DNA of 64,000 bases, taken from NCBI GenBank assembly GCA_036253495.1, contig GCA_036253495.1_4125.1. One strand, written 5' to 3'. Source of the stretch: a phage. Every line of letters starts with the position of its first letter. Position 1 is the stretch's first letter. A program made the translations under genes and the position numbers. Positions 12,040 to 64,000 of the stretch are shown here, piece after piece. The notes beneath the pieces were generated by a model that saw only the letters and a list, made by a program, of their open reading frames with translations, searched no databases and was not told the origin of the DNA.

Positions 12040-12069
12040 TCACCGAATGCAGTGAAGAGGAAATCTAAA

Positions 12070-25022: not shown

Positions 25023-25078
25023 TTGACAAACTCAACTAGTACTGTATAATGTTTATCAAGGGGATGAACTTCTCATCC
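25023..25078 (+). promoter_or_regulatory. sigma70-like promoter plus 5' hairpin
   Basis: TTGACA, 16 bp spacer, TATAAT, then GGGATGA-ACTTC-TCATCCC hairpin before the RBS. Confidence 0.55.
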
Positions 25079-25097
25079 CTACAATCGAGGAACTACC

Positions 25098-51933: not shown

Positions 51934-51946
51934 TTTTTAAATTTAC

Positions 51947-52264: not shown

Positions 52265-52327
52265 AGTACTTGCATACTATGTTTAAGGGCGTATAATGTT
52301 TTACATCGAGACGGGGGAAACGCTCCT
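52265..52327 (+). promoter_or_regulatory. promoter with 5' hairpin
   Basis: AGTACTTGCAT -35, TATAAT, then GACGGGGGAAACGCTCC. Confidence 0.6.
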
Positions 52328-52353
52328 AACTCACTTTAATAGGAATTAAAACG

Positions 52354-52716
52354 ATGGCGACTCAAATCACTAAAATCATTGCTAACCTGGTTAACTTTCG
52401 CGAAGAGATGAAAGATCTTCCGGCTGAGACTGTAAAGATTCATATTTCAGCTTATCGGGAATTGATTGCAATGTTGCCGCTTAAGCGTGAACAATACGCC
52501 GCTACTGTGATGCTTGATGCGATGATCCACAAGATGATTGCCAGTGATTTAACGATGGCTTATCAGTACATGGGCGAACTATTTGCGGTGTATAGTAAAC
52601 CAGTGCCTGGGATGGAAAGTACAGAAGTATTGCACGGCTTAAACTTAAAACAAGATGCATGGGATAATATGCCTCGTTTCCTGGTATGGGCTGACAGTGG
52701 CAAGATTTACGAATAA
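52354..52716 (+). CDS. hypothetical protein
   Basis: 120 aa ORF. Confidence 0.6.
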   Translation: MATQITKIIANLVNFREEMKDLPAETVKIHISAYRELIAMLPLKREQYAATVMLDAMIHKMIASDLTMAYQYMGELFAVYSKPVPGMESTEVLHGLNLKQDAWDNMPRFLVWADSGKIYE

Positions 52717-52726
52717 GTTTTAAAAA

Positions 52727-52788
52727 GTACTTGCAAAGTAAGTTTAAAAGCGTATAATGTTTTACATCAGGTGGGGAATAGTTCCCCA
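52727..52788 (+). promoter_or_regulatory. promoter with 5' palindromic hairpin
   Basis: AGTACTTGCAA, TATAAT, GTGGGGAATAGTTCCCCAC. Confidence 0.65.
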
Positions 52789-52810
52789 CTATATAAGAGG
52801 ATTTTTAATT

Positions 52811-53050
52811 ATGGCTACTACTAAAACTTTCAACGGTCACAAAAACAAAACTCATTGGAATGTAAGCCTTTGGATTAATAACGATGAGTCATTGTATCGT
52901 CTGGCGAAAGAATTTATCGACGCTAATACTAATCGTAATGATGCGGCCCGTCATATGATGCTATTTTTAGAACAAATTGGACAAGATAAAACTCCAGACG
53001 GTTTCAAGTATAGCACTACGGCGATCCGTGCTGCAATGGTTGGAATGTAA
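52811..53050 (+). CDS. hypothetical small protein
   Basis: ATG 52811 after AGAGGA; track ORF from 52757. Confidence 0.6.
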   Translation: MATTKTFNGHKNKTHWNVSLWINNDESLYRLAKEFIDANTNRNDAARHMMLFLEQIGQDKTPDGFKYSTTAIRAAMVGM

Positions 53051-53132
53051 GAGAATAGATTTAAAGTACTATTGCACGGTGATAGTACTTTATAATAGAT
53101 TTCTTTTATACAACAACGATAGGGGTAACAGC

Positions 53133-53399
53133 ATGAATATTATATACTTTGCAACGCGTGAACAAGCTCGGCAAGCGGCAAAGGTTGACGGTGCAACGTT
53201 TAAAGATATGGGCGTACAATCTGAACGTGGTAAACGTTGGGCCGTAGTAAAGCAAAGTACAGCCCGATCAATTCAGTACTGGCTATCGGCTTTAAAGAGT
53301 CCTGATAGTGTATCGCGTCGAGTGGTAGAAATAAAGCACGACCGCAAGGGCAACCGTGTTACTGTGTACAGTACTAAAAAGATTGCAGTACTTGAATAA
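53133..53399 (+). CDS. hypothetical small protein
   Basis: ATG 53133; track ORF from 52977. Confidence 0.55.
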   Translation: MNIIYFATREQARQAAKVDGATFKDMGVQSERGKRWAVVKQSTARSIQYWLSALKSPDSVSRRVVEIKHDRKGNRVTVYSTKKIAVLE

Positions 53400-53401
53400 A
53401 A

Positions 53402-53463
53402 GTACTTGCAAAGTAATTAGATTAACGTATAATACTTTCTATCAGGTGGGGAATAGTTCCCCA
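53402..53463 (+). promoter_or_regulatory. promoter with 5' palindromic hairpin
   Basis: AGTACTTGCAA, TATAAT, GTGGGGAATAGTTCCCCAC. Confidence 0.65.
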
Positions 53464-53486
53464 CTACAAATAAGAGGATTTTTAAA

Positions 53487-53717
53487 ATGGCTATTATGTA
53501 TATGACCGAAGTTAAAACCGTAAAAGATACTACCACTAATAAAACTACTTACTTACAGCGGGTATGCGGTGTATGGCAACGTATTAGTAAAGCAAAGTAC
53601 TTTAAATTAACATCATATGCTAATCGTTCGGATTCATTCAGTACTGAAATAAAAGGTAATAAATTACACCAATACGGCACTTATTATTATTATAGCCTGG
53701 ACGCGATTGCAGTCTAA
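53487..53717 (+). CDS. hypothetical small protein
   Basis: 76 aa, AGAGGA RBS. Confidence 0.55.
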   Translation: MAIMYMTEVKTVKDTTTNKTTYLQRVCGVWQRISKAKYFKLTSYANRSDSFSTEIKGNKLHQYGTYYYYSLDAIAV

Positions 53718-53799
53718 GCAGTTTACAAATCTTTACAATTGCCGGTATTGACTTATTTTGTCAGTACTGGCATAATGTATCTATTGAAACGAACAATTT

Positions 53800-53824
53800 G
53801 GCCCACGGGGTGCGGGAGTGTATC
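53800..53824 (+). repeat. conserved noncoding element family B, copy 2
   Basis: GGCCCACGGGGTGCGGGAGTGTATC. Confidence 0.5.
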
Positions 53825-53855
53825 TATAGAAAAAGTAGTTTAGTACAGTTACAAT

Positions 53856-53905
53856 TGTGCACCCTATGGGTTAGCTGTTGTCATGGGGTATATTATACCA
53901 GTACT
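53856..53905 (+). repeat. conserved noncoding element family A-like, copy 3
   Basis: GTGCACCCTATGGGTTAGCTG..ATTATACCAGTACT. Confidence 0.45.
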
Positions 53906-53964
53906 TGATAATGCTGTCAATACTTTTTTTTTACTATTCAGTACTGAAAACTATTTTTTAAAAA

Positions 53965-54037
53965 GTACTTGCATACTATGTTTAAAGGCGTATAATGTTT
54001 TACATCAGGACGGGGAACGAAATAAGTAACTCCCCGT
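53965..54037 (+). promoter_or_regulatory. promoter with long 5' hairpin / leader element
   Basis: AGTACTTGCAT, TATAAT, then ACGGGGAACGAAATAAGTAACTCCCCGT; leader resembles 57001-57050. Confidence 0.55.
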
Positions 54038-54085
54038 TAAGTAGCCCAGGAGTAAGGCACACGAAAAACTCCCCTGATAAAATAG

Positions 54086-54113
54086 TTTGACAAATGTTTT
54101 TAAAAGCGTATAA
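54086..54113 (+). promoter_or_regulatory. sigma70-like promoter
   Basis: TTGACA, 16 bp spacer, TATAAT. Confidence 0.55.
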
Positions 54114-54146
54114 TACTTACATCAACTACTGAATGAGAGTTACAAA

Positions 54147-54821
54147 ATGAAAACTATCACTACTACTACTTTCGTTATGGATTTTTCTGAATTGAATGAG
54201 GGTGGCAAAGCGAAAACTATCACTACTACTACTTATGTTATGGCTTTTTCTGAATTGACCGCAGAACAACAAACGTCAGCTATCGAACTGGTTCGGGATC
54301 GTGAGCGTTCATGCGGGGATGATTTCTTTTCTGAGTCAGTGATCGAATACTATAAAGAAACATTATTGCCGGAATATGGCATTAATGACGCAGATTTACG
54401 ATTCAGTGGTTTTTGGTCGCAGGGTGACGGTGCATCAATCAGTACTGATCACGTTGACGGTGTGAAGTTTTTACGCAAGATTAAAGCATTAACTAAGTAT
54501 CGTTCTATCCGTCACCTGCTGAATGAAGATGATTTGGCAATGAGTGTAAAGCGTTCTCACTCCCACTACTCGCATGAAAACACTGTAAGCGGGTACATTG
54601 AATCGGCTTACACTGATTTAACCGCAAAACAAGAAACGTTAGTTAATGAGCTTGAGGAACTACTCACTGAAACTATTCGTGAATTATCTCGCAAGTTGTA
54701 CCGTGATTTAGAGAATGCATATGAGGATCAATTCACTACTGAGAACATTGTAGCACTGATTGAGGGTAACGAATATCAATTCAATGTTATTGATGGCGTA
54801 GTAGAATCAATCGAATATTAA
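54147..54821 (+). CDS. hypothetical protein with N-terminal internal duplication
   Basis: 224 aa; KTITTTTFVMDFSEL repeated as KTITTTTYVMAFSEL. Confidence 0.6.
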   Translation: MKTITTTTFVMDFSELNEGGKAKTITTTTYVMAFSELTAEQQTSAIELVRDRERSCGDDFFSESVIEYYKETLLPEYGINDADLRFSGFWSQGDGASISTDHVDGVKFLRKIKALTKYRSIRHLLNEDDLAMSVKRSHSHYSHENTVSGYIESAYTDLTAKQETLVNELEELLTETIRELSRKLYRDLENAYEDQFTTENIVALIEGNEYQFNVIDGVVESIEY

Positions 54822-54838
54822 TTCAGTACTGAATCAAT

Positions 54839-54857
54839 GGCGGGAGTGGTTCCCGCC
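54839..54857 (+). promoter_or_regulatory. 5' palindromic hairpin (no obvious own promoter)
   Basis: GGCGGGAGTGGTTCCCGCC just upstream of the RBS of 54878. Confidence 0.5.
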
Positions 54858-54877
54858 TATAACCAGGAGTAAGCATC

Positions 54878-55111
54878 ATGATCGAACAAATTCAAACGAC
54901 TACTAGCCGGAGCGGAACGAAAGTACATTCCATCGCTGATACTGATAAAGGTGTACCCTATTGTGCTGTACACGTAAACACTGACGGTGACTATTGGTTA
55001 ACTGTATACGGGCGTTACTCGTTTGCTTTTAGTGCACATAGTAAGATCCTGGAAGTAGTGAAGCCAACGGGTAAAAATATTACCGCTGAAATGTTTTATA
55101 AAAAGCACTAA
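54878..55111 (+). CDS. hypothetical small protein; paralog of 56247..56483
   Basis: Shared GVPYCAVHVNTDG.YW.TVYG ... PTGKNITAEMFYKK. Confidence 0.65.
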   Translation: MIEQIQTTTSRSGTKVHSIADTDKGVPYCAVHVNTDGDYWLTVYGRYSFAFSAHSKILEVVKPTGKNITAEMFYKKH

Positions 55112-55114
55112 AAA

Positions 55115-55176
55115 GTACTTGCAAAGTAATTAGATTAACGTATAATACTTTATATCGAGAGCGGGAATAGTTCCCG
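55115..55176 (+). promoter_or_regulatory. promoter with 5' palindromic hairpin
   Basis: AGTACTTGCAA, TATAAT, GCGGGAATAGTTCCCGC. Confidence 0.65.
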
Positions 55177-55196
55177 CCTATACTGAGGATTATCTA

Positions 55197-55478
55197 ATGA
55201 GCAAAGTAATTAACTATACAGTACTAAGCAAGTCATTGTCTATCAGTGAGTGCACCGATGGTTATTGGCTTTATGATGAAACGCGTGGCATGAATTTAGC
55301 TATGCAGGAGAAAACTACTGATGCGGCATATCTTAAAGCACTGGAATACTACCAGAAGCGTTTAAAGGAAGTAGAAAACGATTATAATAACCTGAAAGCG
55401 AAAGTAGATAATTTCGTTGGTCAATTCGTTGACGATGACGAGGGGCACTACTGCGACCGTTGCGGATCTTACAGTTAA
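55197..55478 (+). CDS. hypothetical small protein
   Basis: 93 aa; C-terminal CDRCGSYS. Confidence 0.6.
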   Translation: MSKVINYTVLSKSLSISECTDGYWLYDETRGMNLAMQEKTTDAAYLKALEYYQKRLKEVENDYNNLKAKVDNFVGQFVDDDEGHYCDRCGSYS

Positions 55479-55495
55479 GTACTAAGGATTATATA

Positions 55496-55699
55496 ATGAG
55501 TGATTTAATTGAACGTATCAAAGAGCTTGAAGAAAAAGAATTGCAGCTAATCGGCTTACAGAATAAAATCTATCATGATTTGGGGAGTTTTATCAATGCC
55601 TGGGATAGTGGCGATCCTGATGCGTTACCTGCTAACCGCCAGGCGATGATCAATGATGTGCGTCGTGTCTTTGAGTATGTTTTTAAGCAATTAAATTAA
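55496..55699 (+). CDS. hypothetical small protein
   Basis: ATG 55496 after TAAGGA; track ORF from 55460. Confidence 0.55.
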   Translation: MSDLIERIKELEEKELQLIGLQNKIYHDLGSFINAWDSGDPDALPANRQAMINDVRRVFEYVFKQLN

Positions 55700-55702
55700 A
55701 AA

Positions 55703-55765
55703 GTACTTGCAATTAGTTTTCAGTACTGTATAATAGTTTACATCAAGGGGAGAAATGGTTCTCCC
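55703..55765 (+). promoter_or_regulatory. promoter with 5' palindromic hairpin
   Basis: AGTACTTGCAA, CAGTACTGTATAAT, GGGGAGAAATGGTTCTCCC. Confidence 0.65.
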
Positions 55766-55784
55766 TGGTAATGAGGAAAATACA

Positions 55785-56006
55785 ATGGCTAACATTACTA
55801 CCCTTTCCCAACTTGAAGCACTGGTTAAATCTATGCGGGAACATGCCGACAATATCGGCGTAAAAGATCCAGCCGTTTGCTTCTGCGACGATGTAAATGA
55901 TGATACACTGGTAATAGCAGAAGTCCAGGACGTTTCTAACTATTCATCGCGTTACACTGGCGGTGTAGCAAATAAAGGTGACTTCTGTTTATACCTTACT
56001 AAGTAA
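55785..56006 (+). CDS. hypothetical small protein
   Basis: ATG 55785 after GAGGAA; track ORF from 55755. Confidence 0.55.
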   Translation: MANITTLSQLEALVKSMREHADNIGVKDPAVCFCDDVNDDTLVIAEVQDVSNYSSRYTGGVANKGDFCLYLTK

Positions 56007-56066
56007 TACAGAGGGGATCGATTGATCCCCTTTATTTTGCAGTACTGAATCATTTAATAGACGGAT

Positions 56067-56127
56067 CTATGCACCCGGTGGGTTAGAGACTGTATCGTCT
56101 TGATGTAGTAATTATGCCAGTACTGGA
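56067..56127 (+). repeat. conserved noncoding element family A, copy 4
   Basis: CTATGCACCCGGTGGGTTAGAG..TCTTGATGTAGTAATTATGCCAGTACTGG. Confidence 0.6.
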
Positions 56128-56169
56128 TGCAGTTGTCAAGAACTATTTTTCAAATACTTTTTATTAAAA

Positions 56170-56225
56170 TACTTGCTAATAGTTTTTAAACGCGTATAAT
56201 GTTTTGCATAGGGGAGCGGTTCCCC
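56170..56225 (+). promoter_or_regulatory. promoter with 5' palindromic hairpin
   Basis: TACTTGCTA, TATAAT, GGGGAGCGGTTCCCC. Confidence 0.6.
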
Positions 56226-56246
56226 TGGTAACTAAGGAATAAGAAA

Positions 56247-56483
56247 ATGCTTGAACAAATCAAAACAACGTCTGCGAATGTAACGGGAACGGTATCACAC
56301 TTTATTGGTGATGAATCGCGGGGCGTACCCTATTGTGCTGTACATGTAAACACTGATGGCAACTACTGGTTTACGGTTTACGGATCTTATTCATTTGGTC
56401 GACCTGGACATCAAAAAATCCTGGATAAAGTACAGCCAACGGGTAAAAATATCACTGCTGAAATGTTTTATAAAAAATCATAA
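56247..56483 (+). CDS. hypothetical small protein; paralog of 54878..55111
   Basis: 78 aa; same conserved core. Confidence 0.65.
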   Translation: MLEQIKTTSANVTGTVSHFIGDESRGVPYCAVHVNTDGNYWFTVYGSYSFGRPGHQKILDKVQPTGKNITAEMFYKKS

Positions 56484-56484
56484 A

Positions 56485-56546
56485 GTACTTGCAATTAGTT
56501 TTTAGTACTGTATAATATTTTACATAGCAAGGGGGAACGGTTCCCC
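56485..56546 (+). promoter_or_regulatory. promoter with 5' palindromic hairpin
   Basis: AGTACTTGCAA, TAGTACTGTATAAT, GGGGGAACGGTTCCCC. Confidence 0.65.
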
Positions 56547-56566
56547 TGGTAACTAAGGATAATCAA

Positions 56567-56866
56567 ATGAAAATTGCAATCATCGCCCTGGCTTTATCTG
56601 TTTCCTCTTTCGCTGTTAATGCGTCATTAGATGTACCTGGTGATAAATTCATTCAGTGCACAGTAGCAATGACAGATGAAAGTACTGGCGAGATTGTTTT
56701 AAAGGATCTGGAATTACAGCCAGAAGCATTTAAAAACGGGCCGTTCCATGAAGAAGACGAAAAAGGTAGCACAACAATTTATTATGATGCAATGAAAAAA
56801 CGTGGTTCTGTCACTGTTATGGATACTGAGAAAGTAACGCATACAGGCGTTATTAACTGCCTATAA
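56567..56866 (+). CDS. putative secreted small protein
   Basis: Signal peptide MKIAIIALALSVSSFAVNAS. Confidence 0.6.
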   Translation: MKIAIIALALSVSSFAVNASLDVPGDKFIQCTVAMTDESTGEIVLKDLELQPEAFKNGPFHEEDEKGSTTIYYDAMKKRGSVTVMDTEKVTHTGVINCL

Positions 56867-56886
56867 TACATCAGTACTGAATCACT

Positions 56887-56913
56887 AGCCCACTATAAGC
56901 AGTGGGCTTTTTT
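56887..56913 (+). terminator. Rho-independent terminator
   Basis: AGCCCACTATAAGCAGTGGGCT + T-run. Confidence 0.75.
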
Positions 56914-56961
56914 GTAGTATCGTAGTACTGGAATACTTTGAAAATAGTTTTAAAAAAGTAG

Positions 56962-57050
56962 TTGACATTACCGCAAAAAGGCGTAGAATGTATTACATCA
57001 AGACGGGGAACACTAAGTAGACCGCCAGTAAGTCGAACGAAAAACTGGAC
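56962..57050 (+). promoter_or_regulatory. promoter plus conserved long leader element
   Basis: TTGACA, TAGAAT; leader ACGGGGAAC..AAGTAG..AGTAAG..CGAAAAACT resembles 54010-54075; about 110 nt 5' UTR. Confidence 0.5.
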
Positions 57051-57112
57051 ACGTCGAGAAAACTTTGATACACTAACTAACGTAAACTAAACTTTAATTG
57101 AGGAATTACATA

Positions 57113-57595
57113 ATGGCTAACGTAAAATCATTCATCAAAGCACTGGTAGCAAATGAAACTAACGTAGCGGCAGAAATCCTGGCCGAACTGGATAGCGATA
57201 CCATGAAAGCAGTACGCAACAATTTTAACATTGCGTACAGCGAAGCGAAAGAACTGCAAGCTAATAAAGCGGCAGCACTTGAAGCTGAGAAGGCAGCACG
57301 CGAAGCTGAATTGCAGAAAACGATTGAAGATATTAACGCCGCCGTCGCTGGGCTTGATCTGGAAGTAGTTACCGAAATGGCACGTAAAGCCCTGGCAGCG
57401 AAATACGGGGAAGACAAGCCAGAAGTAAAAGCTAAAAAATGGATTCAAGAACGTGTGACGGTTGTACTGGATAATGGCGAGGAATACACTGTACCAGTAC
57501 GCGGTAACTGCATTGCGGTAGTACTGGATGCTATCAAAGAAAGCGGATTGACTCGCGAGGAATGGATCGAATCTCATCGCAAAGTTGAAGCATAA
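57113..57595 (+). CDS. hypothetical A/E/K-rich protein
   Basis: ATG 57113 after GAGGAA; track ORF begins at a TTG at 57098. Confidence 0.6.
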   Translation: MANVKSFIKALVANETNVAAEILAELDSDTMKAVRNNFNIAYSEAKELQANKAAALEAEKAAREAELQKTIEDINAAVAGLDLEVVTEMARKALAAKYGEDKPEVKAKKWIQERVTVVLDNGEEYTVPVRGNCIAVVLDAIKESGLTREEWIESHRKVEA

Positions 57596-57616
57596 CAATT
57601 AAAGTACTGAATCACT

Positions 57617-57644
57617 AGCCCACCTTAAACAGTGGGCTTTTTTT
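57617..57644 (+). terminator. Rho-independent terminator
   Basis: AGCCCACCTTAAACAGTGGGCT + T-run. Confidence 0.75.
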
Positions 57645-57660
57645 GTGTCTATAGTATCCC

Positions 57661-57770
57661 AGTCCACCAGCACCGCCTAGAATCGATTCTAACGCATTAA
57701 ACTGATTATCTGATGCATCGCCCTAGCTGGTGGCGTTAAGGTCGTTAGAATGCGATTGAGAGCGTTTAAA
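57661..57770. repeat. long imperfect inverted repeat containing the CGTTAGAATGCG element
   Basis: CCACCAGCACCGCCTAGAATCGATTCTAACGC ... GCCCTAGCTGGTGGCGTTAAGGTCGTTAGAATGCGATTGAGAGCGTTTAAA. Confidence 0.5.
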
Positions 57771-57794
57771 GTATTTTGCAAAAAGTAATAAAAA

Positions 57795-57826
57795 GTACTT
57801 GCACGATAAAGAGATTAGCGTATAAT
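57795..57826 (+). promoter_or_regulatory. sigma70-like promoter
   Basis: AGTACTTGCAC, TATAAT. Confidence 0.55.
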
Positions 57827-57871
57827 TAATTACATCAAGGCGAGACACCTTAACTAACTGAGGATATAAAG

Positions 57872-58024
57872 ATGAATACTTATGAACTGGATTGTTTCAC
57901 TTTACAAGTAATGTCAGTATGCAGTAAAAAAGATTGGTCATCAAAGGAATTTAAAGCAGTTATCGCGTGTGCAAAACACGGCAAGACTATCAATGAAACG
58001 GCATCAATCATTGATAAACTTTAA
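57872..58024 (+). CDS. hypothetical small protein
   Basis: 50 aa hand-translated; GAGGAT RBS. Confidence 0.4.
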   Translation: MNTYELDCFTLQVMSVCSKKDWSSKEFKAVIACAKHGKTINETASIIDKL

Positions 58025-58032
58025 AAAATAGT

Positions 58033-58061
58033 TTGACAATAGTTTTAAGTACTGCGATAAT
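58033..58061 (+). promoter_or_regulatory. sigma70-like promoter
   Basis: TTGACA, 17 bp spacer, GATAAT. Confidence 0.5.
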
Positions 58062-58094
58062 ACATACATCAACTACTGAATAGGAATCAAAACA

Positions 58095-58322
58095 ATGGCT
58101 ATCGTAATCACTCGCGTAACTGGTACTACTGGCAATTCTTCTACTGTTGCTGTAATTACTAATAAGAAAGGTGCGGAATTGCATTTTGCAATGGATACCT
58201 GGGCAGTGAATGAGTTCGGTCAGTGGGCTAGTGTAGAATACATTGAATCCTATCAAGTGCCATCGATTAGCTTAACTGATTTAGGTGTAGAACGTATCCT
58301 TTGCCTGGATGAATTAAATTAA
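58095..58322 (+). CDS. hypothetical small protein
   Basis: 75 aa ORF. Confidence 0.55.
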   Translation: MAIVITRVTGTTGNSSTVAVITNKKGAELHFAMDTWAVNEFGQWASVEYIESYQVPSISLTDLGVERILCLDELN

Positions 58323-58326
58323 AAAA

Positions 58327-58390
58327 GTACTTGCAAAGTAAATCAAATAAAGTATAATACATTACATCAAGGGGAGAAATGGTTCTCCCC
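58327..58390 (+). promoter_or_regulatory. promoter with 5' palindromic hairpin
   Basis: AGTACTTGCAA, TATAAT, GGGGAGAAATGGTTCTCCCC. Confidence 0.65.
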
Positions 58391-58408
58391 ACTAAGAGGA
58401 AACGAAAA

Positions 58409-58552
58409 ATGAAAACTTGTCAATGTGGTAAAAAATCTATTACTGGTTTAAAGCGGGGCGTTGCTCTTTGTCAGTATCACTATAATGCTCAAGTATGGGG
58501 TAAAGAGTGGGCCGACCGGGTTGAAGCATCAAAGAAAGCAAAAAGTAAGTAA
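58409..58552 (+). CDS. small cysteine-containing protein (possible zinc ribbon)
   Basis: 47 aa hand-translated; CQCG ... LCQYH. Confidence 0.45.
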   Translation: MKTCQCGKKSITGLKRGVALCQYHYNAQVWGKEWADRVEASKKAKSK

Positions 58553-58571
58553 AAATATTATCACAGTACTA

Positions 58572-58600
58572 TTGACATAGATTGATAGTACTGGCATAAT
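58572..58600 (+). promoter_or_regulatory. sigma70-like promoter within a ~95-bp duplicated intergenic block
   Basis: TTGACA, 17 bp spacer, CATAAT; block recurs at 58860-58950 and 62740-62830. Confidence 0.6.
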
Positions 58601-58643
58601 AGATTTTATCAAGACAACACATATTAATTTAAGGAATACTAAA

Positions 58644-58856
58644 ATGGCTATCATTATTAAAAACAAAGTTAACAAGACTATCGTTAAACTGGCAGAAGTG
58701 AAAGAAGGTTATAAAGTATCTTGGGAGGGTTTTTATAGGATGTTCACAGATATAGACGATGCAATCAAGTACTACACTGATACGGTTGCTGACTTTGTTC
58801 GTTCTGATGTAGTAATGGCAGTTGCACAACATAAAGCATCGAAAGAAAGTAAGTAA
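58644..58856 (+). CDS. hypothetical small protein
   Basis: 70 aa; MAII start shared with 62828 gene. Confidence 0.55.
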   Translation: MAIIIKNKVNKTIVKLAEVKEGYKVSWEGFYRMFTDIDDAIKYYTDTVADFVRSDVVMAVAQHKASKESK

Positions 58857-58875
58857 AATTATTATCACAGTACTA

Positions 58876-58904
58876 TTGACATAGTTTGATAGTACTGGCA
58901 TAAT
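58876..58904 (+). promoter_or_regulatory. sigma70-like promoter (duplicated block copy 2)
   Basis: TTGACA, CATAAT; leader identical to copy 1. Confidence 0.6.
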
Positions 58905-58947
58905 AGATTTTATCAAGACAACACATATTAATTTAAGGAATACTAAA

Positions 58948-59271
58948 ATGGCTAAAACTATCATTAACACCGTATCCCTGGCTGCAATCCGTGCAATCAA
59001 TGTTGACGGTAAACGTTGGACTGATTCATATGGCAATACTTATCATTCTTGTCATGTAAGCGTTGAACTGGATAACGGTGTGAATGATCTGGCGGTTGAA
59101 TCATTTACTTATGGCTATGAAGATGCATATCAACAAACGGCGTTATCTCTCTTAAAGGAATCAGTAGATGGGCTTGATACTGTTGAAACCTCCCTTAATC
59201 GTTTGTGCAATGATTTGTCTATCCCGTTGCATTGTACTGTACAGAATGTTAAACGCAAAAAAGATCTTTAA
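58948..59271 (+). CDS. hypothetical protein
   Basis: 107 aa ORF. Confidence 0.55.
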   Translation: MAKTIINTVSLAAIRAINVDGKRWTDSYGNTYHSCHVSVELDNGVNDLAVESFTYGYEDAYQQTALSLLKESVDGLDTVETSLNRLCNDLSIPLHCTVQNVKRKKDL

Positions 59272-59351
59272 TTAGCTTTACTTTATGCAGATACTTTGAT
59301 ATAGTGTCTGCATAGGGGAAAGAAATTAAATTAACTTAAGAGGATAGTATA

Positions 59352-59621
59352 ATGAAAAATATCAGTACTTTAATCGATGCAGGTACGCATGTTCGTCGGT
59401 CTATGGTTGCAACCAGTACTACAAAACAAGTAGCGAGCGGTTATCTTGTATTTGTGCACGATGGTAAACTCCTGGAACGTTCAATCAATTTTGATGTTAA
59501 AAACAATTGCCGTTTTATTATCTTTAAGCGTGAACAATATAAAATTGATTTACCAGCGAAGCCCATAAGCGGGGCGTACAACGTGCAATCATTGTTTGAG
59601 CGTCAACCATACACCTATTAA
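59352..59621 (+). CDS. hypothetical small protein
   Basis: 89 aa, AGAGGA RBS. Confidence 0.55.
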   Translation: MKNISTLIDAGTHVRRSMVATSTTKQVASGYLVFVHDGKLLERSINFDVKNNCRFIIFKREQYKIDLPAKPISGAYNVQSLFERQPYTY

Positions 59622-59672
59622 TCAAAACATCGTTAGCGGTTGATTTAGGCCGCTTATATTGAGGATTATACC

Positions 59673-59942
59673 ATGAACGTTAATCAAGTACTGAATGAAG
59701 TTGAAAGCATCATTAAACCAATGAAACGAATTGATGCAATTCCTACACCGGAAGAATGCCGCCTTTATGAGCGTTACAGTGTAGAACAAGCCCAGGCGAT
59801 GGCCCGTATCCGTCCGGTTGCTAGTACTGAGAACGCGGATCAGGACGTTACAGGGGATTATATCATTAATCCAGTACTAGGGAAGATGCCGCCAATCACC
59901 GAAGAACAAAAAGACTATTTGAGCCAGTACTTAAAAGGTTAA
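59673..59942 (+). CDS. hypothetical small protein
   Basis: 89 aa, GAGGAT RBS. Confidence 0.55.
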   Translation: MNVNQVLNEVESIIKPMKRIDAIPTPEECRLYERYSVEQAQAMARIRPVASTENADQDVTGDYIINPVLGKMPPITEEQKDYLSQYLKG

Positions 59943-59947
59943 TTAAT

Positions 59948-60157
59948 ATGCTTACTGTACAGGATAAGATCGACATCTTAAAGGTTAATATGTATGTGAT
60001 TGATGCAGATCCTGAAAAAGTATTTGCATACGATGATTCTAATCGTAGTCCTTTCTATTGTAGTCATGTAGTTGGATACGTGCCGTTGGCGTATGTTATC
60101 GAAAGAGTGGTTGATGCAGCATACAATCATTTTTTAGAAAATAATACTTGCAATTAG
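59948..60157 (+). CDS. hypothetical small protein
   Basis: 69 aa ORF. Confidence 0.45.
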   Translation: MLTVQDKIDILKVNMYVIDADPEKVFAYDDSNRSPFYCSHVVGYVPLAYVIERVVDAAYNHFLENNTCN

Positions 60158-60206
60158 TTTTCAGTACTGTATAATGATTTGCATCGAGAGCGGGAATGGT
60201 TCCCGC
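60144..60206 (+). promoter_or_regulatory. promoter with 5' palindromic hairpin
   Basis: TACTTGCAA, CAGTACTGTATAAT, GCGGGAATGGTTCCCGC. Confidence 0.65.
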
Positions 60207-60229
60207 CTAACTCAAAGAGAGAAAATATA

Positions 60230-60472
60230 ATGGAAACTATTTTAATCAAAGACACTGCAACTACTGTTACTTATGATAATGATTGTATTATCCCTGGCAC
60301 TGATTACGGTGAACGTGTACCCGTTCAAGTCGAGATTGATACTACATACATTGACCAGGCTGAAAAGTGTATCACTATTGTTATTGGTGAATATCGTTTT
60401 CTACCAGAAGAGATCCAAAAATGGCAGTATATGATTGACCGTGCGAAATTAGTCGCACAAAGTTTAAAATAA
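60230..60472 (+). CDS. hypothetical small protein
   Basis: ATG 60230; track ORF from 60179. Confidence 0.55.
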   Translation: METILIKDTATTVTYDNDCIIPGTDYGERVPVQVEIDTTYIDQAEKCITIVIGEYRFLPEEIQKWQYMIDRAKLVAQSLK

Positions 60473-60535
60473 TACTTGCAATTAGTTTTCAGTACTGTAT
60501 AATGTTTTACATGAAGGGGAGAAATAGTACTCCCC
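60472..60535 (+). promoter_or_regulatory. promoter with 5' palindromic hairpin
   Basis: TACTTGCAA, CAGTACTGTATAAT, GGGGAGAAATAGTACTCCCC. Confidence 0.65.
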
Positions 60536-60554
60536 ACTAATTAAGGAATATGAA

Positions 60555-60701
60555 ATGAAAGCATCAAAAAAGAGTAATACTAAGAAAGCATGTTCACCTT
60601 TCGCTGGGGTATTCCCTTTACGTTTCGTTGATGAAGTGGTTTCCTACCCGCCGGGCCTTACTCCTGAGATGGTAGAAAGTTTGCGTAAATCTAAAAAATA
60701 G
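60555..60701 (+). CDS. hypothetical small basic protein
   Basis: 48 aa hand-translated; AAGGAA RBS. Confidence 0.45.
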   Translation: MKASKKSNTKKACSPFAGVFPLRFVDEVVSYPPGLTPEMVESLRKSKK

Positions 60702-60764
60702 TACTTGCAATTAGTTTTCAGTACTGTATAATGTTTTACATAGAGGGGGGAAATGGTTCTCCCC
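60701..60764 (+). promoter_or_regulatory. promoter with 5' palindromic hairpin
   Basis: AGTACTTGCAA, CAGTACTGTATAAT, GGGGGGAAATGGTTCTCCCC. Confidence 0.65.
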
Positions 60765-60782
60765 GATACTAGGAGAATCAAA

Positions 60783-60935
60783 ATGAAACAATATAATGCT
60801 CGGTTTGATGTTACTATCGGCAACGGCAAAGGTCAATTTTCTTTCAGTACTCGTCGCAGTTATACAGAAAACTTCCTGCGTAATTGTGCATTGACCGCCG
60901 CACAAATTAAACATTACTTCCAGGCTAAAAAATGA
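60783..60935 (+). CDS. hypothetical small protein
   Basis: ATG 60783 after AGGAGA; track ORF from 60753. Confidence 0.5.
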   Translation: MKQYNARFDVTIGNGKGQFSFSTRRSYTENFLRNCALTAAQIKHYFQAKK

Positions 60936-61021
60936 AATCATTGGCTTATTACAGTTCGGCGGTGATCGGTGCATTGATCGCGGCATTGTTAGTAACCTAT
61001 CTATTCTTTGTGGTGATTTAA
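60932..61021 (+). CDS. small hydrophobic peptide
   Basis: 29 aa hand-translated, single TM-like segment, ATGA overlap. Confidence 0.3.
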   Translation: MKSLAYYSSAVIGALIAALLVTYLFFVVI

Positions 61022-61159
61022 ATGAATCCTAACGGTTTAATTTATAGTACTCCTAAAACGAAAGCAGATAAAGCGAAAGCACGTAAAGCGAAAGTAAAGG
61101 AGTACATCAAGCAAGGCATGACGCGAAAAGCAGCAGTACTAAAAGCTAAAAATAAATGA
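61022..61159 (+). CDS. small K/A-rich basic peptide
   Basis: 45 aa hand-translated, TAAATG coupling. Confidence 0.4.
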   Translation: MNPNGLIYSTPKTKADKAKARKAKVKEYIKQGMTRKAAVLKAKNK

Positions 61160-61166
61160 AAAAAGT

Positions 61167-61198
61167 GGTTGACTTCGGTCAGCCATTTTGCTATTATA
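61167..61198 (+). terminator. terminator hairpin overlapping promoter -35
   Basis: GGTTGAC-TTCG-GTCAGCC, short T-run, TATTAT. Confidence 0.6.
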
Positions 61199-61221
61199 TA
61201 TTCATTGAGAGATAGCTCACT

Positions 61222-61246
61222 AGCCCACCGGGTGCGGAAGTGTAAA
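61222..61246 (+). repeat. conserved noncoding element family B, copy 3
   Basis: AGCCCACCGGGTGCGGAAGTGTAAA. Confidence 0.45.
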
Positions 61247-61278
61247 TAAAATATATCAATCTAATAAGGAGTACTACA

Positions 61279-61461
61279 ATGTTTAAACCAATCGAACTAG
61301 CGGCATCACATATCATCGGTAAACCTGCCGTTATCATACGCCAGGAAGACGTAAACCTATGGATCATCTATGTAGACATGAAAGAGATTGAGCGTCACGA
61401 TGATTTCAAATCAGCGTCAATTGCGTATGATATGGCGTTATGTGAGTATCAAAGAGATTAA
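61279..61461 (+). CDS. hypothetical small protein
   Basis: 60 aa, AAGGAG RBS. Confidence 0.55.
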   Translation: MFKPIELAASHIIGKPAVIIRQEDVNLWIIYVDMKEIERHDDFKSASIAYDMALCEYQRD

Positions 61462-61477
61462 AAGTATTTTGCAAAAA

Positions 61478-61540
61478 GTACTTGCATTGTACTTAGAATC
61501 AAGTATAATGTTTTACATAGCAAGGGGAAACGGTTTCCCC
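61478..61540 (+). promoter_or_regulatory. promoter with 5' palindromic hairpin
   Basis: AGTACTTGCAT, TATAAT, GGGGAAACGGTTTCCCC. Confidence 0.65.
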
Positions 61541-61561
61541 TGGTAACTAAGGAAATGAATT

Positions 61562-62029
61562 ATGAATAGCATCGAATTCGTCGCAGCAGTACAAGAAAAC
61601 TTCCTGAAAGTATTCCCTAACGGTTTCTTTATCGCCCGACCTTTACCGCTGGGTGGCGACGTGGGGATCACTATGTCACTGACTCGCGAGCTTGCCGACT
61701 GCCCCCACAATATCCGCGATAACGACCGCATGATGATGACCTTTGCGATCCACGGTATGAAGTTCGGGGATAGCGACGAATACACAGACAAGCTGATCAT
61801 GGAACCGTACCGCAGCGTTATCAGTACTATTCCACGTAAACAGTACTACGCGATGGGACATGACAAAATCCCTACCCGTAAGACTACAAACACGCCTGAG
61901 AAGCTGTTAGCGACTCTTAACAAGTATATTCGGGCCGCAGGTAAACAGGTGTTAGATCTTAAAGCATTAAACGAGATTTACCAACAGGAAAACATCAAAG
62001 AGCAGTACTTAGAAATTAACGTAAAATAG
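61562..62029 (+). CDS. hypothetical protein
   Basis: 155 aa ORF. Confidence 0.6.
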   Translation: MNSIEFVAAVQENFLKVFPNGFFIARPLPLGGDVGITMSLTRELADCPHNIRDNDRMMMTFAIHGMKFGDSDEYTDKLIMEPYRSVISTIPRKQYYAMGHDKIPTRKTTNTPEKLLATLNKYIRAAGKQVLDLKALNEIYQQENIKEQYLEINVK

Positions 62030-62093
62030 TACTAGACAACACAACGGGGCTATTATATAATAGTCCCATCTTAAGCAAACAAGGAACTACAAA

Positions 62094-62432
62094 ATGATCT
62101 CAATCGCTCAATCTAACTTTGAAAACGAAATCATCGCCCAGGCACTGCGTTTAAATGATGGTCGGGCCGAAATTAATTACGGTTTCAATTCAGGCGGTTG
62201 TGAAAACTATCAGTACTTTGTAACGGCTGATGGCGGTGTCCTGGGAATCAATACAGTTATTGTAAACATTCAGAAAATTAATTTCAATGATCCAGAAGAT
62301 AGCCAGTTTTACATCACGGGCGTAGACGTGAACTATGAGGATGACTCACTAACTGATGATTGCACTGGTGAGAAGTTAGAAAGTGCATACGGTGAAGATG
62401 ATTATCAGTCCGGTCCAGAAGATTTCGAATAA
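62094..62432 (+). CDS. hypothetical acidic protein
   Basis: 112 aa ORF. Confidence 0.6.
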   Translation: MISIAQSNFENEIIAQALRLNDGRAEINYGFNSGGCENYQYFVTADGGVLGINTVIVNIQKINFNDPEDSQFYITGVDVNYEDDSLTDDCTGEKLESAYGEDDYQSGPEDFE

Positions 62433-62448
62433 TATAAAAAATAGTTTG

Positions 62449-62511
62449 ACAATAGATTATAGTACTGTATAATAAGTTACATCAAGGGGAGAATAGTTCT
62501 CCCCACAAACA
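62449..62511 (+). promoter_or_regulatory. promoter with 5' palindromic hairpin
   Basis: TTGACA, TAGTACTGTATAAT, GGGGAGAATAGTTCTCCCC. Confidence 0.65.
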
Positions 62512-62524
62512 GAGAGAAAACAAA

Positions 62525-62737
62525 ATGGCTAATATCCGCACTGTACTGAAAAATGCAAAACAAGTTTTATTTTCTGATCATGAAAATTTCAACAAGGATA
62601 TCACAGGCGTTCGGAATATCAAAGATGTAAAAAATGTTATGGGTATCTATTGCAATATGAAACGTGTTGGCACGTTCGGCGATAAAGTACTATACCAGGC
62701 AGGGGATTACAATTTTACACTGACTATCATTAACTAA
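62525..62737 (+). CDS. hypothetical small protein
   Basis: 70 aa ORF. Confidence 0.55.
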   Translation: MANIRTVLKNAKQVLFSDHENFNKDITGVRNIKDVKNVMGIYCNMKRVGTFGDKVLYQAGDYNFTLTIIN

Positions 62738-62756
62738 AAATATTATCACAGTACTA

Positions 62757-62785
62757 TTGACAACGTTTGATAGTACTGACATAAT
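62757..62785 (+). promoter_or_regulatory. sigma70-like promoter (duplicated block copy 3)
   Basis: TTGACA, 17 bp spacer, CATAAT. Confidence 0.6.
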
Positions 62786-62827
62786 AACTTTTATCAAGAC
62801 AACGCATATTAACTTAAGGAATTAAAA

Positions 62828-63007
62828 ATGGCTATTATCGCAAAAACTGAAATCGTTGGTCTGGATTCTATCATCATGACGTTTGAAGATCAAAAAGGGA
62901 TGTATGTAGTTTCCTATGGTGATTATGTTCGGGAGTATGAAACGGTAGACGAAGCCTTTGAAAGTTACATTCGCCAGGTGAATAAAGCATACGACGACTA
63001 CCGCTAA
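62828..63007 (+). CDS. hypothetical small protein
   Basis: 59 aa hand-translated; MAIIAKTEIV. Confidence 0.5.
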   Translation: MAIIAKTEIVGLDSIIMTFEDQKGMYVVSYGDYVREYETVDEAFESYIRQVNKAYDDYR

Positions 63008-63034
63008 AATATATTACCAGTACTATTAAAGATA

Positions 63035-63062
63035 TTGACATAGTTTGATAGTACTGTATAAT
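63035..63062 (+). promoter_or_regulatory. sigma70-like promoter
   Basis: TTGACA, 16 bp spacer, extended -10 TGTATAAT. Confidence 0.6.
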
Positions 63063-63106
63063 AAGTTTTATCAACAGTAGTTAACTTAACCTAAGAGAGA
63101 AAGAAA

Positions 63107-63250
63107 ATGATCGCACTGGATTCATTCATCGAAGCAGTACTGGCAAAAACTGGCGAAGATCTGACCGCAGAACAATACGCAATGATCGAACAATGCCAGC
63201 AAGACGGTAAATCGGTGAAAGATACTGTTAAGATTATCCGCAAGATGTAA
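63107..63250 (+). CDS. hypothetical small protein
   Basis: 47 aa hand-translated; AGAGAGAAAG RBS. Confidence 0.5.
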   Translation: MIALDSFIEAVLAKTGEDLTAEQYAMIEQCQQDGKSVKDTVKIIRKM

Positions 63251-63256
63251 GATTAT

Positions 63257-63287
63257 AGCCCACTGGTTAACGCTGGTGGGCTTTTTA
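63257..63287 (+). terminator. Rho-independent terminator
   Basis: AGCCCACTGGTTAACGCTGGTGGGCT + T-run. Confidence 0.7.
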
Positions 63288-63369
63288 GTATATACCTATC
63301 CGATAGTACTACAAAATAGATTAGCTCGTTAGAATGCGTTTGAGAGCGTTTAAATAAGTACTAAAAAGT

Positions 63370-63427
63370 ATTGACAGTACTGATAGATAGTGTATAATGT
63401 TTTACATGAAGGGGAAACATCTTCCCC
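63370..63427 (+). promoter_or_regulatory. promoter with 5' palindromic hairpin
   Basis: TTGACA, TATAAT, GGGGAAACATCTTCCCC; preceded by a CGTTAGAATGCG element. Confidence 0.65.
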
Positions 63428-63445
63428 TACTAAGAGGAAAACAAA

Positions 63446-63634
63446 ATGGAACAATTATCAAGTATTTTAGTACAAGATGAATACGGCAATCCAGGAAGTG
63501 CTATCATTGTTCGGGGTAATAAGGCAACGTTTGTTATTGCTGGTGGACCTGTACAGCGTAGCATTAAAAACAATGCCGTTACTATTAATAATGTACGCTA
63601 TCGTTTAGATAAAGAATTAATTCATAAACTTTAA
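63446..63634 (+). CDS. hypothetical small protein
   Basis: 62 aa ORF. Confidence 0.55.
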   Translation: MEQLSSILVQDEYGNPGSAIIVRGNKATFVIAGGPVQRSIKNNAVTINNVRYRLDKELIHKL

Positions 63635-63638
63635 AAAA

Positions 63639-63702
63639 GTACTGGACAATAGATTATAGTACTGTATAATAAGTTACATGAAGGGGAGAAATGATTCTCC
63701 CC
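63639..63702 (+). promoter_or_regulatory. promoter with 5' palindromic hairpin
   Basis: TGGACA, TAGTACTGTATAAT, GGGGAGAAATGATTCTCCCC. Confidence 0.65.
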
Positions 63703-63720
63703 AGTACTGAGGAAAGAAAA

Positions 63721-63933
63721 ATGCAAGGTCAACTAATCGTTCGTAAATGGTCTGATACTAACGCTAAACCGTGGGATGTACAATACATCGCCCCCAATGG
63801 TGAATCCAGATATCAACCAGGTGTAACGCATAGTACTGAGCAATATGCCGCCGCACACCGTGAACGCCTGTTACAATCCATGCAGCAAGGCTTCGGTGAA
63901 AAATTCATCCAAGATCATTGGCTGAAAGATTAA
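63721..63933 (+). CDS. hypothetical small protein
   Basis: ATG 63721 after GAGGAAAG; track ORF from 63691. Confidence 0.55.
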   Translation: MQGQLIVRKWSDTNAKPWDVQYIAPNGESRYQPGVTHSTEQYAAAHRERLLQSMQQGFGEKFIQDHWLKD

Positions 63934-63937
63934 AAAA

Positions 63938-64000
63938 GTATTTGACAAAGTATCACAGTACTGTATAATTAATTACATCAAGGGGAGAAGTTTTCTCCCC
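63938..64000 (+). promoter_or_regulatory. promoter with 5' palindromic hairpin (window edge)
   Basis: TTGACA, CAGTACTGTATAAT, GGGGAGAAGTTTTCTCCCC. Confidence 0.6.

Follow-up and report, generated by a model that had tools for sequence, protein, structure and literature searches.

What does a short GC-rich palindrome do when a phage places it, again and again, between the promoter and the ribosome-binding site of its small genes? The question is raised by the window analysed here, a 64,000-nt stretch of phage DNA (contig GCA_036253495.1_4125.1) from an Asteriusvirus-type jumbo coliphage of the 121Q/PBECO4/G17 group, with ~90% identity to Asteriusvirus phages. Its right-hand part (52.2-64 kb) holds ~33 small genes, and an earlier note on this DNA had described there a repeated unit of promoter, GGGGA..TCCCC palindrome and ribosome-binding site, taking the palindrome for either the operator of a dimeric repressor or a 5' RNA stem-loop. 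We propose, with moderate confidence, that the units are early-gene expression cassettes of the promoter-early stem-loop (PeSL) type, situated in the terminal-repeat early region, and that their hairpin most likely stabilises and insulates the messenger RNA (mRNA).

The promoter-hairpin units form a non-random array

Read from 5' to 3', a unit comprises an A-rich stretch ending in AGTAC, a -35 hexamer (TTGCAA, TTGCAT or TTGACA), 16 bp that often terminate in cAGTACTG, the -10 hexamer TATAAT, ~12 nt of the consensus gttttACATcaa, a GC-rich hairpin, a Shine-Dalgarno sequence (SD) and an ATG. Counting by eye within 52-64 kb gave 15 clean promoter-plus-hairpin units, with GC stems of 5-9 bp, loops of 3-5 nt and the ATG 13-21 nt past the stem. 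Four degenerate units (52270, 53969, 56962 and 57799), one promoterless hairpin of the same class (54839-54857) and one outlier at 25023 were found in addition. Units with the hairpin downstream of the -10 hexamer are referred to as class I. When the units of the window were surveyed together with those of G17, WPEC5 and 121Q (78 Asteriusvirus units), the offset from the -10 hexamer to the stem was 9-15 nt (mode 12), the stem 5-9 bp (mode 8), the loop 3-5 nt and the distance from stem end to start codon 13-21 nt.

The pattern TTGNNN-N16-TANAAT has 20 matches on the plus strand of 52-64 kb, 13 of which are followed at an offset of 7-18 nt by a hairpin passing a strict threshold. First-order Markov simulations of the region predicted 0.64 promoters and 0.01 units by chance, and such a hairpin was present in only 4.7% of random 45-nt windows. 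A promoter scanning tool returned 77 promoter-like sites versus 48.3 +/- 7.1 in shuffled sequence; the 12/12 matches (seven) and the 10/12 matches (many) lie nearly all on the plus strand. The promoter-hairpin array is real and highly non-random.

Sequence reading and pattern scans thus recovered the repeated unit of the earlier note where it had been placed (13 units against 0.01 expected), together with the similar unit reported at 25023-25078 (here 25023-25079). The statement that almost every small gene has a unit was too strong, as 15-19 of the ~33 genes do. Several genes have no promoter of their own and are translationally coupled, and six or seven promoters have no hairpin (54087, 58033, 58572, 58876, 62757, 63035 and one near 53070). 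The description of the genes as monocistronic is unproven: terminators follow few units, and most units begin directly at the previous stop codon with no terminator between, so that read-through is likely. The sequence cAGTACTGTATAAT does not equal the canonical extended -10 (TGnTATAAT), and a co-regulated regulon is a fair description in the ordinary sense of early genes that are read by host RNA polymerase and have one promoter type in common.

Bases 55000-61000 are matched at 80-95% identity by ~79 phage records, nearly all of them Asteriusvirus jumbo coliphages of ~350-380 kb, and bases 52.2-64 kb correspond to the early-gene region at the genome end. The G17 counterpart lies inside the first ~21 kb of that genome, where all genes are directed toward the genome end, and in vB_Ec-M-J the matching stretch is covered by a feature annotated as 'Direct Terminal Repeats'; for the relative Sharanji, a terminal repeat of 20.7 kb is reported (PMC11895373). 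Neighbouring genes in G17, WPEC5 and 121Q encode small hypothetical proteins without exception. As judged from these correspondences, the array is located in the early, ORFan-rich region at the genome terminus. Outside the right-hand region, the remaining 50 kb of the window holds a single unit (25023); the array itself extends past the window edge, and in G17 a stretch of 28 kb contains 23 units of this kind. The literature searched yielded no transcript maps for Asteriusvirus. Searching the whole window with Rfam at gathering thresholds gave zero matches, and ARAGORN found neither tRNA nor tmRNA.

The palindrome is predicted to act as an RNA hairpin

Eight positions past the -10 hexamer, the base is invariably A (103/103 units); the base before it is always C or T (103/103), and the next one is T in 100/103. 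A pyrimidine at -1 and a purine at +1 form the preferred start context, and transcripts probably start at this invariant A. Folding of the predicted 5' ends, which the earlier note had suggested, gave the hairpin as both the minimum free energy and the centroid structure of the leader (-10 to -14 kcal/mol) and as its sole predicted structure, with the SD unpaired; hairpin-less leaders are essentially unstructured (-0.5 to -2 kcal/mol). From the predicted start, the unpaired 5' tail is 2-8 nt long when stems are called strictly (mode 5), and RNAfold gives 1-5 nt.

In some units the loop (AUGG or AUGA) contains an in-frame ATG from which open reading frame (ORF) callers start the gene, as in window ORFs 55755, 58379, 60753 and 63691; G17_00045 (12651) and its WPEC5 ortholog (20078) are annotated with such a start. 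An SD-preceded ATG lies 30 nt downstream of the loop ATG. The loop ATG was rejected as a start codon, its SD-like arm being base-paired and only 2 nt away and most loops having no ATG, and these starts are probably mis-called N-termini.

A palindrome just downstream of the start site occupies the classic roadblock position, and its GGGGA/TCCCC core is conserved within the genus, as would suit a dimeric repressor that binds at ~+6 to +25 and shuts the early promoters. The half-sites, in contrast, are not evenly placed: the distance from GGGGA to TCCCC is 5-10 nt, and up to 14 nt at 54010, with arms of 5-9, and such variable spacing and arm length are a poor fit to a dimeric DNA-binding protein. 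Covariation was scored on 33 distinct hairpins with 3-nt loops, aligned without gaps; a MAFFT alignment that mixed stems and loops of different lengths was structurally inconsistent and was dropped. Two-sided (compensatory) changes were present at 7 of the 9 stem pairs (45 cells), and the covariation score was 0.525, versus 0.20 +/- 0.02 in shuffles (0/500) and 0.12-0.22 with the partner column slid. Paired cells made up 91.6%, a share that is inflated by the selection of these hairpins with a hairpin finder, which leaves the variety of pair types unaffected; many of the hairpins are related to one another.

The imperfect pairs carry a strand signature as well. Transitions should yield G·T and A·C mismatches equally, and only a plus strand folding on itself would leave G·T in excess; in duplex DNA such an asymmetry would be meaningless. 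A census of 56 distinct hairpins, strand-symmetric and made with a caller that penalises every mismatch alike, found 14 G·T (G always on the 5' arm), 2 A·A, 1 G·A and zero A·C, C·A or T·G, although many units are paralogs or orthologs, which brings the count of independent G·U events down from 14 to roughly six or more. All 56 have the G run on the 5' arm, in a G-run/loop/C-run structure that admits G·T pairs, and at least 20 different loops of 3-6 nt occur (UAG, UGG, CGG, AUGG, AUGA, ACAUC, GCGGU, CAC and others).

Relatives retain the structure with other sequences. RaK2, from another genus, shares the promoter and the ACATCAAAG start region and has a hairpin in the same position, built on the different stems GGGATACA/TGTATCCC, GGGAATGAA/TTCATTCCC and GGAGATTCCA/TGGAATCTCC, and a group of 360-366-kb contigs carries GGGGGAA-acaac-TTCCCCC. 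In Phapecoctavirus ESCO13, GCGGCA-atag-TGCCGC precedes a 62%-identical ortholog of gene 62525, for which the window has GGGGAGAA-tag-TTCTCCCC. GAP32-type relatives have the same promoters followed by AT-rich leaders without a hairpin, which marks the hairpin as a lineage-specific addition to the promoter, present in Asteriusvirus, RaK2 and rV5-like phages and not in GAP32-like phages. A scan of viral contigs for GTACTTGCAA-N16-TATAAT returned mostly unrelated single matches and was informative only for contigs of ~345-378 kb.

All four tests favour RNA, or in any case the single-stranded sense strand, as the form that matters. Since pairing is conserved on the sense strand, the palindrome would work at the RNA level, as a hairpin, rather than as a DNA site for a protein: it is, on this comparative evidence, a conserved sense-strand stem-loop between the predicted start and the SD. 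The repressor operator of the earlier note, which lacks fixed half-sites and spacing, is contradicted by 7/9 covarying pairs and by 14 G·T against no A·C, and has unrelated stems at the same site in RaK2 and ESCO13, is the least supported reading and a most improbable one. The other reading in that note, a 5' RNA stem-loop, held as to structure through the covariation and the mismatch asymmetry; the roles it offered, protection or recognition by a factor, are putative.

The GGG-first/CCC-last orientation is never inverted in Asteriusvirus and RaK2 units, which could reflect sequence-specific recognition or merely common descent. If the former, the hairpin might mark early mRNAs for an RNA-binding protein or a ribonuclease, of phage or host origin, which would set when they are translated or degraded, by a logic like that of T4 RegA/RegB. 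The G-run/C-run core, kept with its orientation in all these units, the fixed 13-21 nt between hairpin and start codon, and a lineage-specific presence that would fit a lineage-specific partner all suit such a tag. Loops, however, are not conserved, stems covary freely, ESCO13 has no GGGG core, no candidate partner was identified, and copy-and-paste descent of the cassettes explains the conserved core equally well. We consider a recognition tag distinctly unlikely. A bolder version has a similarly slender chance: the hairpin would be a shared address label by which one RNA-binding factor or nuclease, phage-encoded or hijacked from the host, switches the terminal-repeat early set on or off post-transcriptionally, so that lineage-specific hairpin presence would track that factor, or else the AGTACT palindromes, and not the hairpin, would be DNA sites by which a phage protein exerts control or marks the DNA.

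Class I hairpins do not have the form of canonical terminators

Across the 78 units, the 8 nt after the stem contain a mean of 2.1 T (maximum 4), and a terminator scan flagged no class I hairpin in the region where it detected canonical AGCCCAC...GTGGGCT terminators with a T run at 56887, 57617 and 63257 and a hairpin with a T run at 61162. The lack of a T tract after the stem argues against canonical intrinsic termination at class I hairpins. They are easily mis-annotated as terminators: in the G17 record, an ARNOLD-based annotation labels at least one of them (12051-12070) a terminator.

That label, and the lack of any other terminator between genes at most units, would fit the original view of PeSLs, in which the stem-loop attenuates both incoming upstream transcription and its own, preventing a pile-up along the array. 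One RB49/phi1 stem-loop placed between promoter and lacZ indeed cut expression as much as the terminator rrnB T1 (Arbiol 2010, PMC2839356), and two further cassette classes of the window fit the same view. In the second (GGGTTGACTTCGGTCAGCCCTTTTTGCTATAAT; 61162, with further plus-strand copies at 19785, 24075, 26941, 27670 and 29303), the -35 hexamer TTGACT lies within the stem GGGTTGAC / GTCAGCCC, which is closed by a TTCG loop, and a T run and the -10 hexamer come next; by its position, this predicted hairpin can act only on transcripts arriving from upstream. The same holds for the third class, with the hairpin over the -10 hexamer (62046), which has a comparable hairpin in ESCO13 (~1759), AGCGCC TATAAT GGGCGCT. 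For class I, however, no stem passes the terminator scan, a terminator placed 5-25 nt past the start would choke the very gene behind it, and where termination does occur the phage employs canonical terminators, of the form AGCCCAC...GTGGGCTTTTTT. Good hairpins are moreover kept in units that come right after a canonical terminator (56173 and 63371). Attenuation, the main rival to stabilisation, thus suits the other two classes and, for want of a U tract and through the throttling of its own gene, suits class I poorly; as an account of the class I hairpin we hold it rather unlikely.

A stabilising and insulating leader structure

In the explanation that we favour, stabilisation and insulation of the message, a cassette begins at or just after the previous stop codon and itself supplies the A-rich/AGTAC upstream element. 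Host RNA polymerase would read the near-consensus sigma-70 promoter and start in the Y-A-T context 8 nt after the -10 hexamer, and the hairpin would be transcribed as the 5'-proximal structure of the early mRNA, ~2-8 nt from its predicted end. There it would hinder 5'-end-dependent attack by RppH and RNase E, stand in the way of exonucleases that trim read-through or processed transcripts, and keep the ribosome-binding site free regardless of the upstream sequence. With strong promoters and no terminators, the hairpin would also lie near the 3' end of processed upstream messages, where it could block exonucleases.

Several points weigh against this explanation, besides the inflated pairing share, the relatedness of the hairpins and the constant orientation given above. 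The start site is itself a prediction. As Emory et al. are said to have found in 1992, 5' protection requires a stem within ~2-4 nt of the end, and with a modal tail of 5 nt protection may be marginal. Compared with dinucleotide shuffles, the leaders reach only modest folding z-scores (-1.2 to -4.0), and it is recurrence and covariation that carry the case, not the energetics of single sequences. The class I hairpin at 54839 and two others (~59285 and ~59635) precede an SD without a promoter, and the hairpin-less promoters of the window have counterparts in the GAP32-type relatives; a role at the 5' end would thus be neither universal nor exclusive. Finally, the stem-loop assayed in RB49/phi1 lowered downstream lacZ as strongly as a strong terminator (PMC2839356).

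Four other candidates were set aside. RNase III sites were rejected because the stems are too short, N4-type DNA-hairpin promoters because the hairpin lies downstream of a sigma-70 promoter and not upstream of the start, and a Q/qut-type pause for lack of a -10-like element in the initial transcribed region; CsrA sites were not retained, the loops having no GGA.

Cassettes bound gene gain, loss and exchange

Relative to G17, homology breakpoints (insertion/deletion boundaries) lie inside cassettes in ~11/11 cases, although selection against gene disruption likewise pushes boundaries into intergenic DNA. Directly repeated units lie on both sides of the insertions 58651-58834 and 60203-60462, and the single corresponding unit of G17 is a hybrid of the two window units, which meet in an identical promoter core of 37 bp. 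A cassette of ~90 nt that is repeated dozens of times would serve as a recombination substrate.

Whole promoter-hairpin-gene modules are also found in unrelated phage families. The cassette and gene at 58318-58552 recur in the Vequintavirinae phage A7_1 (1514-1734) with ~90% nucleotide and 87% amino-acid identity, and at ~90% nucleotide identity in UPEC06 (Vequintavirinae); the 62446-62737 module has a counterpart in ESCO13 (1201-1495) with 62% amino-acid identity and a different stem. Such similarity indicates horizontal exchange of cassettes among large coliphages. Small genes would be gained, lost and swapped as promoter-hairpin-gene modules, among close relatives and across families, and modules common to several families support the cassettes as a general vehicle for trading host-takeover ORFans.

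It is conceivable that the hairpin has no function in the message, and hitchhikes with the duplicated cassette or works only as a DNA-level recombination hot spot. The boundaries and chimeric units within cassettes are compatible with this, and the PeSL authors mapped one crossover to the loop of a stem-loop (PMC2839356). Recombination between homologous cassettes, however, needs just the 37-bp promoter core and no hairpin, and the compensatory and G·U-only changes that keep pairing intact across genera argue for selection on a single-stranded sense-strand structure. We regard a mere passenger as very unlikely.

Feature coordinates and further sequence observations

The units of all classes are listed in Table 1, in which each of the 15 clean units starts at its -35 hexamer. 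A hairpin similar to the promoterless 54839-54857 does come after a promoter in G17.

Table 1. Promoter-hairpin units and related elements of the window (hairpins as 5' arm, loop, 3' arm)
Position	Strand	Type	Promoter	Hairpin	Gene or context
25023..25079	+	class I, outlying	TTGACA-N16-TATAAT	GGGATGA acttc TCATCCC (25061-25079)	SD and ATG follow
52270..52332	+	degenerate	TTGCAT-N16-TATAAT	GGGGG aaacg CTCC, imperfect	upstream of gene 52354-52716
52731..52789	+	class I	TTGCAA-N16-TATAAT	GTGGGGAA tag TTCCCCAC (52771-52789)	gene start 52811
53406..53464	+	class I		identical to that of unit 52731 (53446-53464)	gene 53487-53717
53969..54037	+	variant	TTGCAT	ACGGGGA/TCCCCGT, 14-nt loop (54010-54037)	no ORF after
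54839..54857	+	class I-type hairpin	none	GGCGGGA gtggt TCCCGCC	20 nt before gene 54878-55111
55119..55177	+	class I		GCGGGAA tag TTCCCGC (55161-55177)	gene 55197-55478
55707..55766	+	class I		(G)GGGAGAA atgg TTCTCCC(U), terminal G·U	likely true start 55785
56173..56227	+	class I		AGGGGAG cgg UUCCCCU, one G·U	downstream of terminator 56012-56031; gene 56247-56483
56489..56546	+	class I		GGGGAA cgg TTCCCC	gene 56567-56866
56962..57030	+	degenerate	TTGACA-N16-TAGAAT	start gacGGGGAAC	~115-nt leader to gene 57113-57595
57799..57851	+	weak	TTGCAC-N16-TATAAT	AAGGCG aga CACCTT, one C·A mismatch	gene 57872-58024
58331..58390	+	class I		GGGGAGAA atgg TTCTCCCC (58371-58390)	gene 58409-58552
60148..60206	+	class I		GCGGGAA tgg TTCCCGC	left flank of window-specific cassette 60203-60462
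60476..60535	+	class I		GGGGAGAA atag TACTCCCC, one A·A mismatch	right flank of cassette 60203-60462
60705..60764	+	class I		GGGGGGAA atgg TTCTCCCC, one G·U	gene start 60783
61162..61197	+	second class		terminator-type, over -35, then T run and -10 (GGTTGACTTCGGTCAGCCATTTTGCTATTAT)
61482..61541	+	class I		AGGGGAAA cgg TTTCCCCT	gene 61562-62029
62033..62067	+	third class		GGGGCTATTATATAATAGTCCC (62046-62067), one G·U, encloses -10	gene 62094-62432
62446..62504	+	class I		GGGGAGAA tag TTCTCCCC	gene 62525-62737
63371..63428	+	class I		AGGGGAA acatc TTCCCCT	downstream of terminator 63257-63282; gene 63446-63634
63643..63702	+	class I	TGGACA-N16-TATAAT	GGGGAGAA atga TTCTCCCC	gene start 63721
63942..64000	+	class I		GGGGAGAA gtt TTCTCCCC	cut at window end

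A hairpin-less cassette family of ~100 nt (attatcacAGTACTattgaca..gatAGTACTGgCATAAT..atcaagacaacacatattaatttaaggaat) is present in three near-identical copies (58545-58643, 58849-58947 and 62738-62827, with promoters at 58572, 58876 and 62757), and the copies at 58.5 and 58.85 kb flank a gene missing from G17. Tandem promoters occur at 53969-54146, where 53969 would give an ORF-less leader of ~80 nt (7-bp stem, 14-nt loop) that runs into the hairpin-less consensus promoter 54087; the pair is found twice in G17 (10847/10965 and 20837/20953). A 224-aa gene starts with a tandem duplication of ~63 nt (atgaaaactatcactactactac...tttttctgaattga repeated; 54147-54280), which results in overlapping BLAST high-scoring segment pairs against G17.

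The palindrome AGTACT is the commonest hexamer of the window, with 250 copies versus 21.7 expected (11.5x), usually within CAGTACTG or TTCAGTACTGAA (examples at 52170-52230, 54822-54833 and 55724-55729), and it is the top hexamer of the left 50 kb as well. Its density is 2.8 per kb in long ORFs, in all three frames, and 5.7 per kb elsewhere, and it adjoins the -35 (AAAGTACTTGCAA) and -10 (cAGTACTGTATAAT) of early promoters. An excess of 11-23x is common to G17, WPEC5, 121Q, RaK2, GAP32 and related 355-378-kb contigs; it is absent in rV5-like ESCO13 and three unrelated contigs, and is ~4x in the 3-kb A7_1 cassette region. The literature searched neither mentions nor explains this enrichment.

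Strong promoters face each other on opposite strands at two places (plus ~51853 versus minus 52034, and plus 53748 versus minus 53920; regions 51650-52060 and 53740-53925), and a minus-strand promoter at 56139 runs into the hairpin 56012-56031 (region 56035-56145). The facing promoters would give ORF-less, mutually antisense RNAs of ~100-170 nt at the inner edge of the early region. Each predicted antisense RNA bears ACCC-N3-5-GGGTGC, with no Rfam match; this motif is also found behind strong promoters of RaK2 and of several related contigs, as well as in the leader after 61167. Two highly expressed non-coding RNAs have been reported in the terminal repeat of the related phage PA5oct (PMC7318152).

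Comparison with known systems

The T7 phi10 leader, GGGAGACCACAACGGUUUCCC, is a 5'-terminal stem-loop stabiliser, and the ompA hp1, papA and engineered 5' hairpins resemble the class I element in being simple GC hairpins near an mRNA 5' end, followed by an unstructured SD region. In those stabilisers, as would be the case here (covariation of 0.525 versus 0.20; other stems in RaK2 and ESCO13), structure counts and not sequence. RppH and RNase E require single-stranded 5' ends, and 5' structures stabilise mRNA (PMC3997798). The class I element differs in its predicted tail of 2-8 nt (mode 5), which is above the protection optimum, and in occurring also without a promoter (54839).

The promoters themselves have been described in other Rak2-like phages. 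CBB and GAP32 carry RpoD-like early promoters with UP-like A-rich elements, before short hypothetical genes and in the terminal repeat (PMC5259590). The promoter type is the same, GAP32 having AAAGTACTTGCAA-N16/17-TATAAT, but no downstream hairpin is mentioned there (PMC5259590) and GAP32-type leaders are hairpin-less; the rV5 and CBB genome papers list promoters and no downstream hairpin. Lambda nut boxB and coat-protein operator hairpins are likewise short RNA hairpins early in a transcript or beside a ribosome-binding site, but these need a conserved loop or bulge, whereas the loops here vary freely.

The closest match is the PeSL design described for T4-like phages, which the earlier note did not recognise. 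PeSLs of RB49/phi1 start at the upstream stop codon in an AT-rich stretch, contain a near-perfect sigma-70 promoter and end in an SD and start codon (PMC2839356); they cluster around ORFans in hyperplastic regions and fall into five positional subclasses, one of them 'downstream of the -10' (PMC2839356). Our comparison with RB49/phi1 was made by published text and figure legends, not by sequence. On that basis, the units have in common with PeSLs a near-consensus sigma-70 promoter (TTGCAA/TTGACA, N16, TATAAT), an AT-rich upstream region from the previous stop codon (for example TAAAAAGTACTTGCAA at 55109, 55697, 58320 and 63634), a G-run/loop/C-run stem-loop tolerating G·T, and a 3' end formed by an SD and start codon. 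In both, the cassettes flank small ORFans in a hyperplastic region and bound insertions and deletions between close relatives, and a genome holds several positional classes, here downstream of the -10, over the -35 and over the -10.

As judged from this architecture, the units match PeSL cassettes of the subclass with the stem-loop downstream of the -10, a known design and not a new kind of regulator. They differ in their carrier, a Rak2-like jumbo phage, and in the dominant position of the hairpin, 9-15 nt downstream of the -10, within the predicted transcript and without a T tract. The commonest stem-loop positions in RB49/phi1 are between the -35 and -10 or over the -10, and in the PeSLs of PST/T4 and nt-1/KVP40 the stem-loop is upstream of the promoter (Comeau 2014, PMC4122927); the terminator role proposed for PeSLs poorly suits the dominant class of the window. 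What is new is the presence of PeSL-type cassettes in a Rak2-like jumbo phage, in a class with the hairpin in the predicted transcribed leader; the literature searched holds no report of PeSLs in Rak2-like or rV5-like phages. PeSL-type cassettes thus reach from T4-like to Rak2-like jumbo and rV5-like phages. The units are compact, self-contained and, by their promoters, very strong expression modules of possible use in E. coli engineering, and an in-transcript stem-loop without a U tract offers a clean natural test of whether PeSL stem-loops act as stabilisers or as terminators.

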